From a virus (Duplodnaviria > Heunggongvirae > Uroviricota > Caudoviricetes), in IMG/VR virus record IMGVR_UViG_2663762849_000004, positions 1 to 5,993 of that record: a stretch of 5,993 bases of DNA; one strand, written 5' to 3'. Of this stretch, positions 1 through 5,993 are shown in pieces. Numbering within the stretch: position 1 is the stretch's first letter; every line of letters starts with the position of its first letter. The notes under the pieces are model-generated. The model did no database searches. It was not told the origin of the DNA and saw only the letters and a list, made by a program, of their open reading frames with translations. The translations under genes and the position numbers were made by a program.

Positions 1-436
1 CACCGAGCCGGAATTTCATGAAATCCCGGGAGGTAAACGGGCATTTCAGTTCAAGGCCGTTGCCGTCACTGCATAAACCATCGGGAGAGCAGGCGGTGCG
101 CATACTTTCGTCGCGATAGATGATCGGGGATTCAGTAACATTCACGCCGGAAGTGAACTCAAAGAGGGCTCTGGCGTCGTTCTCGTACTGTTTTCCCCAG
201 GCCAGCGCTTTAGCGTTAACTTCCGGAGCCACACCGGTGCAAACCTCAGCCAGCAGGGTGTGGAAGTAGGACATTTTCATGTCAGGCCATTTCTTTCCTG
301 AGCGGGGTTTTGCTATCACGTTGTGAACTTCTGAAGCGGTGATGACGCCGAGCCGTAATTTGTGCCACGCATCATCCCCCTGTTCGACAGCTCTCACGTC
401 GATCCCTGTACGTTGCAGGATAATGTCCGGTGTCAT
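1..436 (-). CDS. exo: Lambda-type 5'-3' exonuclease (Red-alpha), N-terminal 145 codons; gene continues past the left edge
   Basis: Translating the minus strand from ATG at 436..434 gives [50 protein letters not shown]..., which I recognise as the N-terminus of phage lambda Exo. The frame is open to the window edge. The start overlaps the bet stop as ATGA (433..436), as in lambda. Confidence 0.9.
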
Positions 437-1218
437 GCTGCTACCTTCTGCTCTGTGACTTTCTGTTTCAGGAATCCAAGAACCTTCACAGCTTCAGCCT
501 GTGTTAGTTCTGAAGATGTGTAAATGTTGCGGCGAAAAATCTGGGAACAGAGCGGCAACAGGTCGTCATCCCACGTTTTTTCCATGGAAGTAAGAAGGGC
601 GTTAATTTCCGACATGGTTTCTTCGTTAACCGGGGTGATGTCGCGTTCCGGCTGACGTTCTGTAGTATATGCAGTATTTTCGACAATACGCTCGGCTTCA
701 TCCTTGTCATAGATGCCAGCAAATCCGAAGGCCAGGCGAGCACACTGAATCATGGCTTTGTGCCGTAACATCCGTTTGGGATGCGACTGCCACGGTCCGG
801 TGATTTCTCTGCCTTCGCGGGTTTTGAATGGTGTGCGGCGACATTCATCCATCCACTCGGTAACGCAGATCGGGTGATTGCGATCTTTGCGGTAAATCCG
901 GCATGTACAGGACTCATTGTCCTGCTCAAAGTCCATGCCATCAAACTGCTGGTTTTCATTGATAATGCGGGACCAGCCATCAACGCCAACCACCGGAACG
1001 ATGCCGTTCTGCTTGTCAGGGAAGGCGTAAATTTCTTTCGTCCAGGGATTAAGGCCGTACTGGTTGGCGACGATCAACAATGCGATAAATTGCGCATCGC
1101 TGGCATCACCTTTAAATGCCGTCTGGCGAAGAGTGGTGATTAGTTCCTGTGGGTCGACAGAATCCATGCCGACACGTTCAGCCAGCTTCCCTGCCAGCGT
1201 TGCGAGTGCTGTACTCAT
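433..1218 (-). CDS. bet: Red-beta single-strand annealing protein (Bet), 261 aa
   Basis: The 261-aa translation ([44 protein letters not shown]...) matches lambda Bet over its whole length, with a few substitutions near the C-terminus. ATG start at 1218..1216; TGA stop at 435..433, overlapping the exo start. Confidence 0.95.
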
Positions 1219-1223
1219 CCGTT

Positions 1224-1520
1224 TTATACCTCTGAATCAATATTAATTTGGTGACGGGCGATGGTTTCAGCCATGTAGCGGATGTGTTCTGCCATGCGTT
1301 CCTGAAAATCGACATCGTCATCAAATGCACGGGAAATAGCTTTTTTGCTGGCCCCGTGACGTTGCAGATTATCGATGCATAGCGATTCAAACAGGTGTTG
1401 GGGCAGACCTTTTTCCAGGTCGTCTGCCAGCTCAGCTTCAGTTTCTTCACGGGCAATTTGCTGGTAGTGTCGTGCCCATGACTGCTCTTCAATGCGATCG
1501 GGGATAAGCCAGGCATTCAT
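1224..1520 (-). CDS. gam: Gam, host RecBCD nuclease inhibitor, short isoform only (98 aa)
   Basis: The translation [26 protein letters not shown]...[20 protein letters not shown] is clearly related to the lambda GamS region but diverged more than Bet or Exo. ATG at 1520..1518. An in-frame TAA two codons upstream excludes a long Gam isoform. TAA stop at 1226..1224, 5 nt from the bet start. Confidence 0.9.
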
Positions 1521-3589
1521 GATTTATCACCTCCGAAATTTTCAAGCCTGTTGGCAATCATGATGGCGATATCAGGGATTGCTGGCGCTGTGGCTATACA
1601 TGCGGGGTTGGCGCACAAACCATAGACGGCGGCAATCACGAGCTGTCTTTTCCAGTCGAGAGTTACTGGCTCAGAATTGGCGTCATCGCCGGACGTATCA
1701 CTGCCTGGCTCGTTCTGAACAACGGTTTCGCCCTCCTGAGCGGCATCAACAGAGTTTTCCTGAATGATCTTCTCCTCAGTTTGTGCTGAGTCTTCTCCAT
1801 CAGCGGCGTCATTTTCTCCAAAAGTTTCTGTGTAAGTGCTATCGCCCATTACCGCACTACAGTCAGGGCAGTTACCCCCGCCAGTCTGACCACAGACGCG
1901 GCAGTTTTTTTCCAGCTCCGGTTGCGCTACTGGCCCTGGCTGTTGCTCTTCTGGCCCGTTTTGTTGCGTATCCGGGCTGTTTTGTCCCGCTTCTGGGGCA
2001 ATTTGTTCCACTTTGGACTGATTCTGGTCCTCAGTGTCGCGAGTCTGGATCCCCTTCACCCACTTCGGATCAGCAGGGTTACTGATGCCTTCAACGAATT
2101 CTCCACGCGAGGCAGCCAGTAATTTGTCGGCATCGACTGGATTTTTTGGGGGGATGTTTTCCCTGGCTTTATTGAGTTCCTCCCTCAGTTCCTGGTATTT
2201 CGTTTCTACAGATGAGACATTTTCCAGTGATTGCGTGTCCTCATTATGTTTAACTGGAATTTCTTCCACTGATTCAGGCGCTGCCTGTTCATTAGCCATT
2301 GTGTCCGATGCTTGTTGCTTTTCTTCATCGCCATGTTTTCCTTCTGCTGTTCCGCGCTGCGGCATCGGTGCTGATGAGCGACCGCAGGCAATTTCCACGA
2401 TTTCCGGATCCGGGTTAGCGTGATCGGTTTCGGTCAACACTTTGTTGAGATATTCAGTCACGCGTGCCGGGATGGCCTCAATGCCGATTGGTGCTTCTTT
2501 CACGGAAGCCACCACAATGGCGCGGGAATAATCCAGCCCACCGGGCATGGCGATAAATTTGTCGCGAAAAACAGAAAAGGGCGGCTTATTCTCTGACACG
2601 ATTTCTTCAACGCGTTTTGCGTGTGCTGGGTGCAGGTTATAAATATCCACATCCATTGAACGGGCCAGAACGCCGGTGGCTACATCTCGTGCGAGTGATG
2701 TCTTATCATGTTTGAATCCTTCACCACGATCGGTAATATTTCCGCCGCCAGCGTTAGCACCGGAAGGCGTACGGGTAATGCCTGAAACATAATTTCCGTT
2801 CTGCCATTCTTTTGTCAGCAGGCCCTGATCAAGGTAGTCAGTTTTCATCCAGGTGGAAATGAACTTGTCGAATTCAGCCGGGCTGATGCGATGATTTGCA
2901 GAGTGGGGGAATGCTTTCCCTACAGATTCAGCCAGGCGACTAAGGTGATAGTTCGTCAGTTTATCCAGTTCATGATGCGCGGCGCGCACAGCAGTAAGCA
3001 GGCTCTGAAGGTAACTGTCCTCTGTGTCCATCTCCATACGGATCACGTTATTGCGTTGTTCTGGTGTGGCATGATGCCGGTATTTTCCATCTTCATCTTT
3101 GCTGAATAAGAAGAGGTGAAGGAAGCGATGAGTAAGGCTCAGAGTGGCGACGGGAATTTCACACTCAGAACAGTCATCGTCGCTGTCCGGGGATTCGCTT
3201 TTCTCCACATCATCCGGAATAGTTCCGTCCAGGTTATCGTTGTCATCGCCAGCAGTTGTGGCATCTTCACCGTTGATGTTGTCATCGAAGGGGATAGCCA
3301 TCATGGTGATGCCATCGTTACCGCCTTTTTCATAGCGGTTGCAGAATTCAGTATCAAACACGCCTTCCGGTGGAAGGTCATTCACAACGGGTAAATGGAC
3401 GCGGATGGGTTTTTTAAAATCCTCTTCGTCAAATCCGGCATCGTCCATTGCAGCAACACCGCGTGATATTGCAACCGATAATTTTTTTGCTGTGCGCCAG
3501 TAAAAACCACCTTTAATCCCAAGGCGTTTTCTGACTTTGTCATTTTTGGCTTCGTAATATAGTGCAATTTCTTCTTTATCAGCGTTCAT
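1517..3589 (-). CDS. Hypothetical 690-aa protein of unknown function: basic N-terminal region, acidic tract, central globular region, Q/E/P-rich low-complexity segment, CxxC-x7-CxxC motif, hydrophobic C-terminal tail
   Basis: A 2073-nt uninterrupted ORF on the same strand as the Red genes. ATG at 3589..3587 is preceded by GAGG 7 nt upstream. The TGA stop (1519..1517) overlaps the gam ATG as ATGA, implying co-transcription and translational coupling. Plus-strand ORFs inside this span are short antisense shadows. I recognise no family. Confidence 0.8.
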
Positions 3590-3681
3590 TGATAAACCTC
3601 ATAACCATTTTAAGGATGAACAAATTCCTGCCATTGCTGGCATTTTTAATCCGTTGGTATGGCGTTAATATGGCTGGCGGG

Positions 3682-3870
3682 TTATCCAGCCGGTGTTTCG
3701 TTATTCAGGTACAGCGATACTTTTTTTAACGGGAGGCATTCACCGGGGATTTTTTGTTCGTCCCTTACCTGAATGCAGGATGACTTACTGTCATAAATTC
3801 CGGTAATCACATTCTGCGGCTCACCCGTTATAAGAAAAACGGTCATTATCAGTGCAAACGCTGAAGTCAC
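3682..3870 (-). CDS. Hypothetical 62-aa protein with a hydrophobic N-terminal segment (MTSAFALIMTVFLITG...); GTG start
   Basis: ORF with GTG at 3870..3868 preceded by GGAGAA at about -8. The start overlaps the stop of the upstream ORF as GTGA (3867..3870). An alternative internal ATG at 3846 has no RBS. The short length keeps this call uncertain. Confidence 0.45.
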   Translation of the reverse strand: MTSAFALIMTVFLITGEPQNVITGIYDSKSSCIQVRDEQKIPGECLPLKKVSLYLNNETPAG

Positions 3871-4055
3871 TGCTGTTCTCCGATAATACCAAGTTCAAGA
3901 AGGGCAATTCTGGAAAGTATGGAATTATCATTGAGAAGATAAGGTTCATATTTTCTCATCTTAATGGCATCTTCAGTAAACTCCCGGTTACTGAGCAGAA
4001 CTCCAATATCAAAACAACCTTCAGACGTATTAACGTTTGGTAATAACGTTTCCAT
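3867..4055 (-). CDS. Hypothetical 62-aa protein (METLLPNVNTSEGCFDIGVLLSNREFTEDAIKMRKYEPYLLNDNSILSRIALLELGIIGEQQ)
   Basis: ATG at 4055..4053 with GAGGA 7 nt upstream. The TGA stop at 3869..3867 overlaps the next start. The six-frame track extends this frame to an ATG at 4202 (111 aa), but that extension has a poor RBS, runs through the inverted-repeat segment and has Arg/Cys/Gly/Pro-rich non-protein-like composition. Confidence 0.5.
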   Translation of the reverse strand: METLLPNVNTSEGCFDIGVLLSNREFTEDAIKMRKYEPYLLNDNSILSRIALLELGIIGEQQ

Positions 4056-4072
4056 TATCGCGTCCTCAACAA

Positions 4073-4222
4073 TGAATTTTGTGATGCAGTGCCTGGTGCC
4101 TCCAGGTGACGTTAACCAGTTAACAACTAACGCCGGGTCAGGGGACGATGACTTTCCGTGACATCCTGTCGGTTTAACTGTTCCGCGTGCGCATAGCCGC
4201 ATTCACCGCATCACAAAATTCA
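4073..4222. repeat. Pair of inverted repeats (15 bp perfect, 18/19 when extended) bounding a ~112-bp internal segment
   Basis: TGAATTTTGTGATGC at 4073..4087 is the exact reverse complement of GCATCACAAAATTCA at 4208..4222. Extended to 4073..4091 and 4204..4222 the arms match at 18 of 19 positions. The interior holds two GTTAAC sites 8 bp apart (4111..4116, 4119..4124) and a small CCTGG/CCAGG hairpin (4092..4106). Confidence 0.6.
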
Positions 4223-4267
4223 CTTTAAAAAGGGCGGACATCAGCAATCGGCAAACCGATGTCCGCC
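4221..4267 (-). terminator. Candidate rho-independent terminator for minus-strand transcripts
   Basis: A perfect 10-bp GC-rich stem (4233..4242 GGCGGACATC pairs with 4258..4267 GATGTCCGCC) with a 15-nt loop. On the minus strand the stem is followed directly by C-UUUUU-AAAGUGAAUUUUGUG (complement of 4232..4212). The plus-strand side has no U-tract. The loop is longer than typical. Confidence 0.45.
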
Positions 4268-4506
4268 AAGGGCTACACACAGCAATGTTGTTATTCACAA
4301 CCGGAAGCGCACGGTCGAAGAAATCTAACGACAAGCCTTCAATGGGAAAGAGTCTTCGCCGTGCACTTTCGTGTTGTACCCTGGCTTTCAGGGTAATGTC
4401 TGTTCAGTAAACTGAGAGTGCCGGAACTTACCCGTGTCCGGCGCACGATCTCCACCTCACCCGTGGAGAACTCCTCAACTACAAACCCCGTAAGGAGAGT
4501 GAGTTT

Positions 4507-4716
4507 ATGACACAAGAAGAAAAAGTGATGTTTCTGATGCGGCTGGCTGTCGATACCTACAACACACAATTCAGGGAGAAAGATATACCTCAAAAGGCAG
4601 TTCCTGCCGCGGTAGATAAGGGCGGTGCTATTGCCGTATTTTACGATGCATTTGAATCATTTTTTAATGAAAAACTCGACGCTGTTAGCGGCTTCGGAAC
4701 ATCGAGTAATAAATAA
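4507..4716 (+). CDS. Hypothetical 69-aa protein on the opposite strand to the rest of the operon
   Basis: ATG at 4507 is preceded by a strong RBS, TAAGGAGAG (4491..4499), 7 nt upstream. The ORF runs to TAA at 4714..4716. It converges on, and overlaps by 32 bp, the 3' end of the minus-strand gene 4685..5044. The competing minus-strand ORF 4339..4593 has junk-like composition. Confidence 0.45.
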   Translation: MTQEEKVMFLMRLAVDTYNTQFREKDIPQKAVPAAVDKGGAIAVFYDAFESFFNEKLDAVSGFGTSSNK

Positions 4717-5044
4717 CGTTCATTACGGTTCTTAAACAACAATCAGTGGGCTTGATGTTGTTCTTTTCAAGCTCACTTGCCATCACTTCCATTATTCTTG
4801 CACTTACACGAATTATTTGGTGGCTGTAAGCGATGCAACTGTCGCTGATATTGCTGTTTATTTCTATTACTTCATTTTCACCATTAGCATCAACTTCGGA
4901 TGCGCTGTTTTCATTATCCTGTTTCAGTGCTTTTTCTGCCATCTGGATGCGTGTCAGCGTTGCGGAATTTGGGCTAAGTCGATAAACCTGTCTGGCATCT
5001 TCCAGAAGCAGGGCGATAATGTGCTTCAGTTCTGTTTCGTTCAT
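4685..5044 (-). CDS. Hypothetical 119-aa protein (MNETELKHIIALLLEDARQVYRLSPNSATLTRIQMAEKALKQ...)
   Basis: ATG at 5044..5042 with GGAG 6 nt upstream. The track's 126-aa version starts at a TTG at 5065 that lies inside the RBS. No family recognised. Confidence 0.6.
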   Translation of the reverse strand: MNETELKHIIALLLEDARQVYRLSPNSATLTRIQMAEKALKQDNENSASEVDANGENEVIEINSNISDSCIAYSHQIIRVSARIMEVMASELEKNNIKPTDCCLRTVMNVIYYSMFRSR

Positions 5045-5075
5045 AGTTAACTCCGGTAGTTGCAATTTATTAATA

Positions 5076-5381
5076 TCAGGCGGTCAGCTCTTTAAGCTTC
5101 TGAACTGCTTTATTCATTTCATCCATACAGTCGATGAATTCGTCCAGTTTAAGCTGCATTTTTCCGGCGGCCTGAAGAATTTCAAGTTTTAAGGGCGCAA
5201 GTTTTTTGTTGAATGCATCATCTTCCTGGCGTTTTTTCTCCGCAATTTCGGCGGCTTTCAGCAATTCTTCAGCCTGTTTTCTGAGTATTTCTGGTGAAGG
5301 TGAAACTGCTTTGAGGTTATTCATTTCAGGTTCCTGTTGTTGCAGAATTAATTTGTTGCATTCTCTGCGTGAGCGTTTCAT
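5076..5381 (-). CDS. Hypothetical 101-aa protein, Lys/Glu/Ala/Leu-rich, predicted coiled coil
   Basis: ATG at 5381..5379 overlaps the upstream gene's TGA as ATGA (5378..5381). An alternative internal ATG at 5324 with AGGAA 6 nt upstream would give 82 aa. The sequence ...EILRKQAEELLKAAEIAEKKRQEDDAFNKKLAPLKLEILQAAGKMQLKLDEF... has a heptad-like charge pattern. Confidence 0.6.
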   Translation of the reverse strand: MKRSRRECNKLILQQQEPEMNNLKAVSPSPEILRKQAEELLKAAEIAEKKRQEDDAFNKKLAPLKLEILQAAGKMQLKLDEFIDCMDEMNKAVQKLKELTA

Positions 5382-5788
5382 TGCAGATTCGCACTTCTTG
5401 CAATAAATGGCTCTCCCGTCACGCTTGCTGGCATCTGAATAAAAATCATTGACTGATTTTGTCTGCCCGCATCTGGTACATAATTTTGATTGAAGGTCCT
5501 TAATGATTGTGACGTTTCCTTCCCGCTTGGGATATCCATATTTTTGTGGCGTAAAAAGGTTACTCCGTTACCAGAACCTTCTTTTCTGACCTTAAATACA
5601 ATGATGCTTTCCCGTTTATCGATAAAATCGATGAGCTGGTTTCTCTCCTTTCCTGACAGTTCGGCAAATGTCTTAACTTTTTTAGTAACCTCAGTAAGGC
5701 GAACGCCGTCAGGCATTTTTTCAACGAAGTTTTTAATCTCTGCAAGCGGACGCCATAATTTTTGCGGCAAAACTGAAGGCGTGGTCAT
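5378..5788 (-). CDS. Hypothetical 136-aa protein (MTTPSVLPQKLWRPLAEIKNFVEKMPDGVRLTEVTKKV...)
   Basis: ATG at 5788..5786 with GAGGTGA 5 nt upstream; the track's first codon is a TTG at 5791. Three nt separate it from the stop of the upstream partial ORF. No family recognised. Confidence 0.65.
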   Translation of the reverse strand: MTTPSVLPQKLWRPLAEIKNFVEKMPDGVRLTEVTKKVKTFAELSGKERNQLIDFIDKRESIIVFKVRKEGSGNGVTFLRHKNMDIPSGKETSQSLRTFNQNYVPDAGRQNQSMIFIQMPASVTGEPFIARSANLQ

Positions 5789-5791
5789 CAA

Positions 5792-5993
5792 TCACCTCGC
5801 CGTCAGTTGTTTTGATTTCCGGTAGCCTGCCGCGTAAATGGCTACGTTTGGAAGACATACACCAGTTTCTGGTTGCTTATGTCCAAACTCATTCGCGTAC
5901 ACAATGGCTGCTCGCTCCAGATTGCGTCTGTATTCTTTCTGTTGCCAGATCACGTCCTGTGCCATGAACTTAATTGGCTTAGCGTCTTCTATG
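5792..5993 (-). CDS. 3' end of a minus-strand ORF entering from the right edge (...MAQDVIWQQKEYRRNLERAAIVYANEFGHKQPETGVCLPNVAIYAAGYRKSKQLTAR)
   Basis: This frame is open from the window edge to TGA at 5794..5792, which sits inside the RBS of the next gene. An internal ATG at 5965 lacks a convincing RBS, so the gene probably starts outside the window. Confidence 0.5.
   Translation of the reverse strand, partial: IEDAKPIKFMAQDVIWQQKEYRRNLERAAIVYANEFGHKQPETGVCLPNVAIYAAGYRKSKQLTAR

Follow-up and report, generated by a model that had tools for sequence, protein, structure and literature searches.

A nuclease-less RecE-family protein of a lambdoid prophage that retains the four-cysteine block of RecE and ends in a conserved, predicted helical hairpin

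RecE, the exonuclease VIII of the Rac prophage of Escherichia coli K-12, possesses an N-terminal region that is referred to in the available portion of a 2023 review as a domain "of unknown function"; that portion does not mention zinc, and it credits the N-terminal region of the full-length protein with enhanced linear-linear recombination (PMC11611040). A 2025 survey of lambdoid recombination modules, in the part of its text that is accessible, lists "RecE-2" proteins that lack a nuclease domain, calls them "distantly related", gives their roles as unknown, and notes DnaQ-like nucleases in such modules (PMC12315714). Here, a RecE-family gene is examined that lies in a stretch of viral DNA of 5,993 nucleotides (nt), referred to as the window, comprising positions 1 to 5,993 of the IMG/VR record IMGVR_UViG_2663762849_000004 (Caudoviricetes). 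The product of this gene, termed RecE-N, has 690 amino acids (aa), and what is new in it is a RecE-family scaffold in which a conserved, predicted helical hairpin replaces the nuclease and the four-cysteine (Cys4) knuckle of RecE is retained. The protein fits the description of "RecE-2" in that it has RecE homology and no nuclease domain, a likeness that is by description only. However, it is a close relative of Rac RecE whereas the "RecE-2" proteins are described as "distantly related", and neither the Cys4 motif nor the C-terminal tail is mentioned in the accessible part of that survey (PMC12315714).

The reading preferred here, to which a probability of about 0.55 is assigned, is that RecE-N is a RecE scaffold whose nuclease has been replaced by a 45-residue tail, with the region preceding and including that tail serving as an acidic tether that carries a Cys4 knuckle and a docking or self-association hairpin. 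The last third of the protein would thus be a long, acidic, disordered tether bearing two small elements that are conserved independently of each other. The coordinates of these features and of the neighbouring genes are collected in Table 1.

The RecE N-terminal region as a scaffold with exchangeable C-terminal modules

Family membership of RecE-N is indicated by a Pfam match of residues 56-197 to PF06630 (Enterobacterial exodeoxyribonuclease VIII, N-terminal RecE region; E=3.5e-10), by alignment of the whole protein to positions 1-618 of the 883 positions of phrog_607, and by a match to the exonuclease VIII equivalog model of NCBIfam, NF007259. The latter match covers profile positions 1-598 of 877 only and scores 746 bits, below the curated cut-off of 1269 bits; K-12 RecE scores 1830 bits. 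A Pfam scan of the 690-aa protein yielded no match to PF12684, the PD-(D/E)XK nuclease domain, which in RecE takes up residues ~606-866. Since this domain is missing and the equivalog score falls below the cut-off, the window protein qualifies as a nuclease-less scaffold of the RecE family and not as an exonuclease VIII. The closest phage records, those of PhiR5_2 (95.6%), phiSTEC1589-Stx1c, Shigella phage 75/02 Stx, and POCJ13, all label the gene "exodeoxyribonuclease VIII", a label that, for the same two reasons, overstates the support found in the sequence.

Comparison with two nuclease-bearing relatives indicates where the proteins part. K-12 RecE (b1350, 866 aa) is 53% identical to the window protein and likewise matches PF06630; the two are nearly identical over aa 260-410, over a further 17-residue segment, and over the Cys4 block, which in K-12 RecE occupies residues 517-531 (CNACGQTGGDNCPDC, followed by GAVMGDATYQETF), the same position as the window motif. 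K-12 RecE then continues into a PD-(D/E)XK domain (PF12684, residues 615-850), whereas the window protein ends in a helical tail of 45 aa. Further, recT is the next gene downstream of Rac recE; in the window recT is not directly 3' of the RecE-N gene, and gam, bet, and exo are there instead. A protein of E. coli O157:H7 (WP_000102182.1, 814 aa) agrees with the window protein in its N-terminal scaffold, Cys4 block (aa 542-556), and acidic linker, but its C-terminal module is a 3'-5' exonuclease of the Rv2179c-like type (DnaQ superfamily; PF16473, E=1.4e-67), and its gene is followed directly by xis and int without an annealing protein. In a three-way alignment these proteins share their N-terminal ~590-640 residues and then diverge completely. 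The RecE N-terminal region therefore acts as a scaffold on which C-terminal modules are exchanged, and the tail of the window protein takes the place of the PD-(D/E)XK or DnaQ-like nuclease of its paralogues.

Other relatives extend this picture. Two proteins without a nuclease, P0141 (locus L009, 3209-6043) and P0166 (locus L011, 3176-6151), are encoded one small open reading frame (ORF) downstream of a stand-alone Rv2179c-like exonuclease gene. Their C-terminal tails are unrelated to the window tail, and the domain of the neighbouring exonuclease is the one that O157:H7 carries as a fusion to RecE-N. In the window, a lambda-type exo is encoded separately, downstream of RecE-N and beyond gam and bet. 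These arrangements suggest that RecE-N normally works with a nuclease, which may be part of the same chain or a separate protein, and that coupling in trans could be provided by short C-terminal tails. As a separate observation, P0130 (703 aa) is an in-frame RecE-RecT fusion with its breakpoint inside the Cys4 motif (CNACGQTGGD joined to SALGHAY...), the deletion having removed both the second knuckle and the nuclease domain.

The tailed form of RecE-N is a stable gene type and does not represent an isolated truncation. Among the 120 closest protein clusters, with identities that span 77-100%, most have a length of 680-700 aa and the same tail. A search of 5,426 complete E. coli genomes detected the tail-coding DNA in 106 of them, and the tail is found in 73 IMG/VR loci. 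The tail and gam junction is 100% identical to that in prophages of E. coli O104:H4 outbreak strains, which differ from the window upstream of the gene, where kil and a hypothetical gene are located in place of DicB and DUF1482.

Conservation of the Cys4 block and of the tail

An earlier note, made from the letters of this DNA alone, had described a zinc-ribbon-like motif and a hydrophobic tail at the end of an otherwise acidic protein, and suggested that together they form a targeting or protein-binding module. The acidity is evident (isoelectric point 4.59; 125 Asp and Glu versus 69 Lys and Arg), and the motif lies exactly where it had been placed, with its four cysteine codons at 1901-1903, 1892-1894, 1868-1870, and 1859-1861 on the minus strand. 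The 35-residue string quoted for the tail corresponds to aa 648-682, or nt 1544-1648, close to the approximate range of 1550-1650 given for it. What the earlier note missed is the nuclease-less RecE-family context, and it is this context that gives both elements their meaning.

The motif is unlikely to have arisen by chance, as random placement of the 10 Cys of the protein generated the pattern CxxC-x(2-20)-CxxC in only 67 of 200,000 trials. Conservation of the four Cys in homologues, which the earlier note had proposed as a check, was confirmed, also for K-12 RecE: 123 of the 130 homologues with the motif block keep all four, in 20 distinct variants that differ in the residues between the Cys. 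In a 14-sequence alignment the block has nine invariant columns (C, C, C, P, C, V, G, T, and Y), the residue between the P and the fourth C is D or G, and positions 2, 3, 5-8, and 11 vary. The ratio of non-synonymous to synonymous substitution rates (dN/dS), calculated by the method of Nei and Gojobori, is 0.15-0.3 for the block (aa 563-590) as compared to 0.5-1.2 for the linker that follows it (aa 591-645). The Cys4 block is thus under purifying selection, and it is inherited from RecE. In a comparison of the window with PhiR5_2, the block has a synonymous divergence (dS) of 0.57, the PhiR5_2 version reading CTTCSQNGGGHCPDCGPVMGDE, and its flanks have a dS of 0-0.01. Given such divergence between near-identical flanks, a different allele of this short stretch has evidently been brought in by recombination, without loss of any of the four Cys.

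Several features of the block are consistent with zinc binding. Small Cys4 zinc ribbons, such as the N-terminal ribbon of TFIIB, Spt4/RpoE'', the ribosomal proteins L32, L33, and S27ae, and the N-terminal finger of RadA, have two CxxC knuckles, as does the window motif. Moreover, the second knuckle is of the CPxCG type, and a hydrophobic stretch that resembles a strand comes after it (TFIIB, CPECGLVVGD; window, CPDCGAVMGD). The spacer between the knuckles differs, in that its 7 glycine-rich residues are fewer than in typical zinc ribbons. Sub-cut-off Pfam matches of the motif are to XPA_N, ZnF_RZ-type, Anti-TRAP, and Zn_ribbon_tTFIIB. A block profile compared with the sequences of the PDB likewise gave only sub-threshold matches (best, 9qtr_i, E=0.026), all of which are Cys-rich zinc-binding proteins and most of which are Cys4 zinc ribbons. 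Putative zinc binding is therefore reasonable on the basis of the sequence pattern and its conservation. The block most likely binds one Zn2+ through its two CxxC knuckles, the second of which is of the classic CPxC[GS] type, and the zinc-bound form would be a very small folded unit within the tether, a mini zinc ribbon, immediately before the site at which C-terminal modules are exchanged. A literature search found no paper that describes zinc in RecE, and a text search of the literature found no mention of the RecE Cys4 block, nor does one occur in the available portions of the survey and the review cited above (PMC12315714; PMC11611040).

The tail is predicted by AlphaFold to form two helices, at aa 646-659 and ~665-683, with an ANPAC turn between them, and the same two helices were obtained in both of two runs, one on the full-length protein and one on its C-terminal segment. 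About 130 residues ahead of the tail are predicted to be disordered. Tail dN/dS is 0.06 in comparison to locus L004 (18 synonymous and 8 non-synonymous differences), 0.06 in comparison to locus L012, and 0.17 in comparison to locus L008, indicating that the tail is not junk derived from a recombination junction. The core AAxxGLCANPA is invariant in 10 tail variants, down to 38% identity. A scan of IMG/VR also recovered divergent tails, 43-51% identical, in proteins of 473-736 aa from other prophages (loci L079-L085). The signature can be written as [WFY]-[KRQH]-x-Q-L-x-[IL]-A-A-[VI]-[YQ]-G-L-C-A-N-P-A ... [IL]-x-x-[IM]-A-x-x-[ILV]-A. In loci L080-L084, which keep this signature, the second helix has an acidic and amphipathic character and its Kyte-Doolittle means are about 0.0-0.3. 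Hydrophobicity is therefore not the conserved property of the tail.

A tblastn search of 50,697 phage records with the tail matched RecE-N genes only, in 6 records; PHROGs matches were confined to the RecE-type families phrog_607 and phrog_26058; Pfam returned nothing at E values up to 10; and a tail profile compared with PDB sequences gave one meaningless match (E=0.39). A large protein database yielded only short fragments of the same gene, in a search that appears to favour targets of similar length and so does not exclude long unrelated proteins.

The extreme C-terminus varies between alleles. At the junction of recE-N and gam (1517-1540), one extra nucleotide is present in the window allele as compared to loci L004 and L012, giving rise to alternative C-termini: the L004 and L012 proteins end in GVTDDEYMPNF and GVTSDERLPDF, respectively, and overlap gam by 23 nt, and longer alleles also end in GVTDDE[YH]MP[ND]F. 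Proteins with the DnaQ-type fusion end in [AV]DF. The end of the longer alleles, DDE[HY][MI]P[DN]F, bears a loose likeness to the tip of E. coli SSB, DDDIPF. Mimicry of the SSB tail was considered and dropped, as the position of the proline differs and the window allele is without that extension.

The two elements are separate modules. A span of 68 residues lies between them, in the part of the gene that evolves fastest, and this linker evolves almost neutrally; it is also here that homology to the nuclease-bearing paralogues stops. The Cys4 block is found with PD-(D/E)XK, DnaQ-like, and tail C-termini as well as with a fourth, unrelated C-terminus in P0141, and the tail occurs both with and without the block. 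The idea that ribbon and tail constitute one module, as the earlier note had it, is thus not upheld. A protein-binding role is nonetheless the best remaining reading for the tail by itself, which is conserved and under strong purifying selection.

Possible roles of the tail

A number of observations weigh against the preferred reading. For the Cys4 block, locus L050 has a clean in-frame deletion of the entire block, the first Cys is replaced by Tyr in locus L058, a lineage represented by L012 and Shigella has only three Cys in the motif, and three nuclease-bearing relatives (P0131, P0138, and P0143) are without the block, with only acidic linker at that place. The block is therefore a facultative cassette that is not needed to keep the ORF open. 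No curated zinc-ribbon model matches significantly (best Pfam E values of 0.04-0.16, below the cut-offs), and the predicted local distance difference test score (pLDDT) over the motif is 41-51 across the two AlphaFold runs (41-49 in the full-length run), with beta structure limited to a single weak bridge in the second model at pLDDT 41-51. Of the zinc ribbon named in the earlier note, the conservation of the four cysteines stands, and the fold is a plausible candidate. For the tail, pLDDT is 58-66 in the full-length run and ~50-58 in the run on the C-terminal segment, where a focused alignment brought no gain in confidence (mean pLDDT 49). Moreover, the seven divergent tail-bearing proteins of loci L079-L085 have no gam, bet, or exo nearby, and in the L012 lineage a tail-type RecE-N and gam are followed by a gene for an AAA_24-family ATPase and not by bet-exo. 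These two sets of loci make it unlikely that Red proteins are the universal partner of the tail. The lineage with AAA_24 comprises L012 (E. coli FDAARGOS_943, 1722-5039) and the IMG/VR loci L054-L057, L063, L064, and L078; RecE-N in the L012 lineage is an intact ORF of 646 aa that is labelled a pseudogene by NCBI.

The gene directly downstream is gam in 66 of 66 close-tail IMG/VR loci, in 59 of the 60 E. coli matches listed, and for all four diverged tail variants, and the stop and start codons of RecE-N and gam overlap or nearly touch. The identity of Gam falls with that of the tail (100, 89, and 74%) and that of Exo stays at 95-97%. Coupled with paralogues that carry a nuclease at the tail position or encoded nearby, this arrangement could point to a split RecE, in which the tail is a docking peptide for Gam, Bet, or Exo and RecE-N reconstitutes full-length RecE with lambda Exo non-covalently. 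Such a partnership is doubtful given the loci without gam, bet, and exo and the AAA_24 lineage, and parallel divergence of adjacent genes is predicted by linkage alone. Further, phage lambda itself carries gam-bet-exo and is not known to have a RecE-N gene, which means that Red can do without a RecE-N protein. A related proposal, held just as tentatively, assigns tailed RecE-N to Red as an accessory subunit that would act in trans, the GLCANPA hairpin docking the scaffold and the knuckle on Gam, Exo, Bet, or a host factor at DNA ends. Because of the L012 and L079-L085 loci, and because linkage suffices to explain the co-divergence, commitment is limited here to a docking or self-association hairpin: the tail is most likely a protein-protein element that would link the RecE-N scaffold to trans-acting partners.

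The partner surface might instead be sought within RecE-N itself, with the tail folding back on the core as a buried structural or autoinhibitory element, a possibility that would count against the preferred reading and that has an outside chance of being correct. Apolar helices require a surface to pack against, every protein with the tail also retains some or all of the RecE-N helical region, and the pLDDT of the tail is higher in the full-length model than in the isolated C-terminal segment, but ~130 residues predicted to be disordered separate core and tail, the proteins of loci L079 and L082 have the tail without most of the conserved core, and the nuclease-bearing paralogues function without it. 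The membrane anchor suggested in the earlier note, which would take the protein to the inner membrane by a C-terminal transmembrane helix or a re-entrant hairpin, is not supported. The tail is indeed hydrophobic, with ~31 mostly apolar residues (aa 649-679) of which one is charged, and its Ala/Gly-rich helices are like those of tightly packing helix pairs. This hydrophobicity does not reach a transmembrane degree: the best 19-residue Kyte-Doolittle mean is 1.47, the usual threshold for a membrane helix being 1.6, and Hessa-scale sums are unfavourable: the best 19-mer reaches +3.7 kcal/mol, and no segment of 17-23 residues falls below +3.1 kcal/mol. A membrane anchor is unlikely given this estimate and the loss of hydrophobicity in the distant relatives that keep the signature, and its small remaining chance is lowered by an Asn and a Pro in the middle of the segment and by the nature of the rest of the protein, which is a highly acidic member of a DNA-recombination family.

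Lastly, RecE-N could be a decaying recE remnant, the tail being out-of-frame or junction sequence left by the joining of recE to Red and the Cys motif a relic. Prophage genes often decay, and some copies of this one are frameshifted or labelled pseudogenes, one or more Cys, or the block altogether, are gone from several alleles, and the last residues differ between alleles through the 1-nt indel. Decay would not be expected to leave a tail dN/dS of 0.06-0.17 with many synonymous changes, a length maintained across most of the closest clusters, a tail signature that persists to 38% identity in other prophage lineages, or a Cys4 block that is also under purifying selection. These selection data largely refute the remnant explanation, which is left with hardly any probability.

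Genomic setting and implications

The window contains the lambda Red module order of gam, bet, and exo on one strand, and the genes upstream of RecE-N are identified by Pfam as DUF1482, DicB, and an N-type antiterminator. With Red genes downstream and these genes upstream, the window represents the early-left operon of a lambdoid prophage. Within RecE-N, the folded helical core is the most conserved part of the family, and no convincing relative of it was found in the PDB.

Table 1. Positions of RecE-N, its elements, and the neighbouring genes in the window
Feature	Position (nt)	Strand	Basis
RecE-N, 690-aa RecE-family protein without a nuclease domain	1517..3589	-	ORF call, Pfam, PHROG, NCBIfam
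Folded helical core of RecE-N, aa 145-410	2360..3157	-	AlphaFold block-mean pLDDT mostly 80-96
Cys4 motif, C563-x2-C566-x7-C574-x2-C577, aa 563-577	1859..1903	-	Sequence
Conserved motif block, aa 563-590, CxxCGxxGGxxCPDC[GS]xVMGDxTYxETF	1820..1903	-	Alignment and dN/dS
Acidic disordered linker, aa 591-645, net charge -16	1655..1819	-	pLDDT <50; dN/dS 0.5-1.2
Tail core, aa 646-685, predicted helix-turn-helix hairpin, invariant AAxxGLCANPA	1535..1654	-	AlphaFold, dN/dS, alignment
Variable C-terminal end, GGDKS-stop, ATGA overlap onto the gam start codon	1517..1534	-	Allele comparison
gam (host-nuclease inhibitor), immediately downstream of the RecE-N gene	1224..1520	-	Pfam PF06064, E=4.8e-65
bet (Red-beta-type single-strand annealing protein)	433..1218	-	Pfam RecT family, E=1.8e-33; phrog_252, Bet-like
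Lambda-type exo, first 145 codons, runs off the window	2..436	-	Translation identical to PhiR5_2 Exo

Some further features of the window were observed. A second CxxC pair (DDDCSECE; aa 140-143, 3161-3172 on the minus strand) lies between an acidic disordered segment (aa 101-140) and the folded core; in close relatives it reads CSECE, CPECE, or CPDCE, and it is absent from K-12 RecE. Two ORFs of 137 and 101 aa (5076-5791, minus strand) are the N- and C-terminal halves of one 237-aa protein of PhiR5_2 (locus L001, 1477-2190). In the window that gene is split by a frameshift after ~aa 83, and the CxxC...CxxC of the intact protein (CTRCGQ...CKKCE) is lost. The DicB ORF (3867-4202, minus strand) is listed as 111 aa and the Pfam DicB model covers aa 50-111 only; translation probably begins at an internal Met, that of codon 50.

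In records of E. coli, Shigella, and Stx phages, proteins such as RecE-N are named "exodeoxyribonuclease VIII" or "RecE family exodeoxyribonuclease". As these proteins have no nuclease domain, an enzymatic activity has been wrongly propagated in annotation, and the result reported here corrects this widespread mis-annotation. The Cys4 block and the tail also provide concrete targets for mutagenesis, and thereby handles on the long-unexplained RecE N-terminal region, for which the mechanism outlined above is a proposal. If the tail docks to Red proteins, then adding a RecE-N gene to Red recombineering strains could shift their substrate preference. If RecE-N is an accessory subunit, lambda Red would gain enhanced linear-linear recombination, the property ascribed to the RecE N-terminal region in the available portion of the review (PMC11611040). 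RecE-N would then be a portable scaffold with interchangeable effectors, either a nuclease of the PD-(D/E)XK or the DnaQ-like type or a hairpin that docks a separately encoded nuclease.

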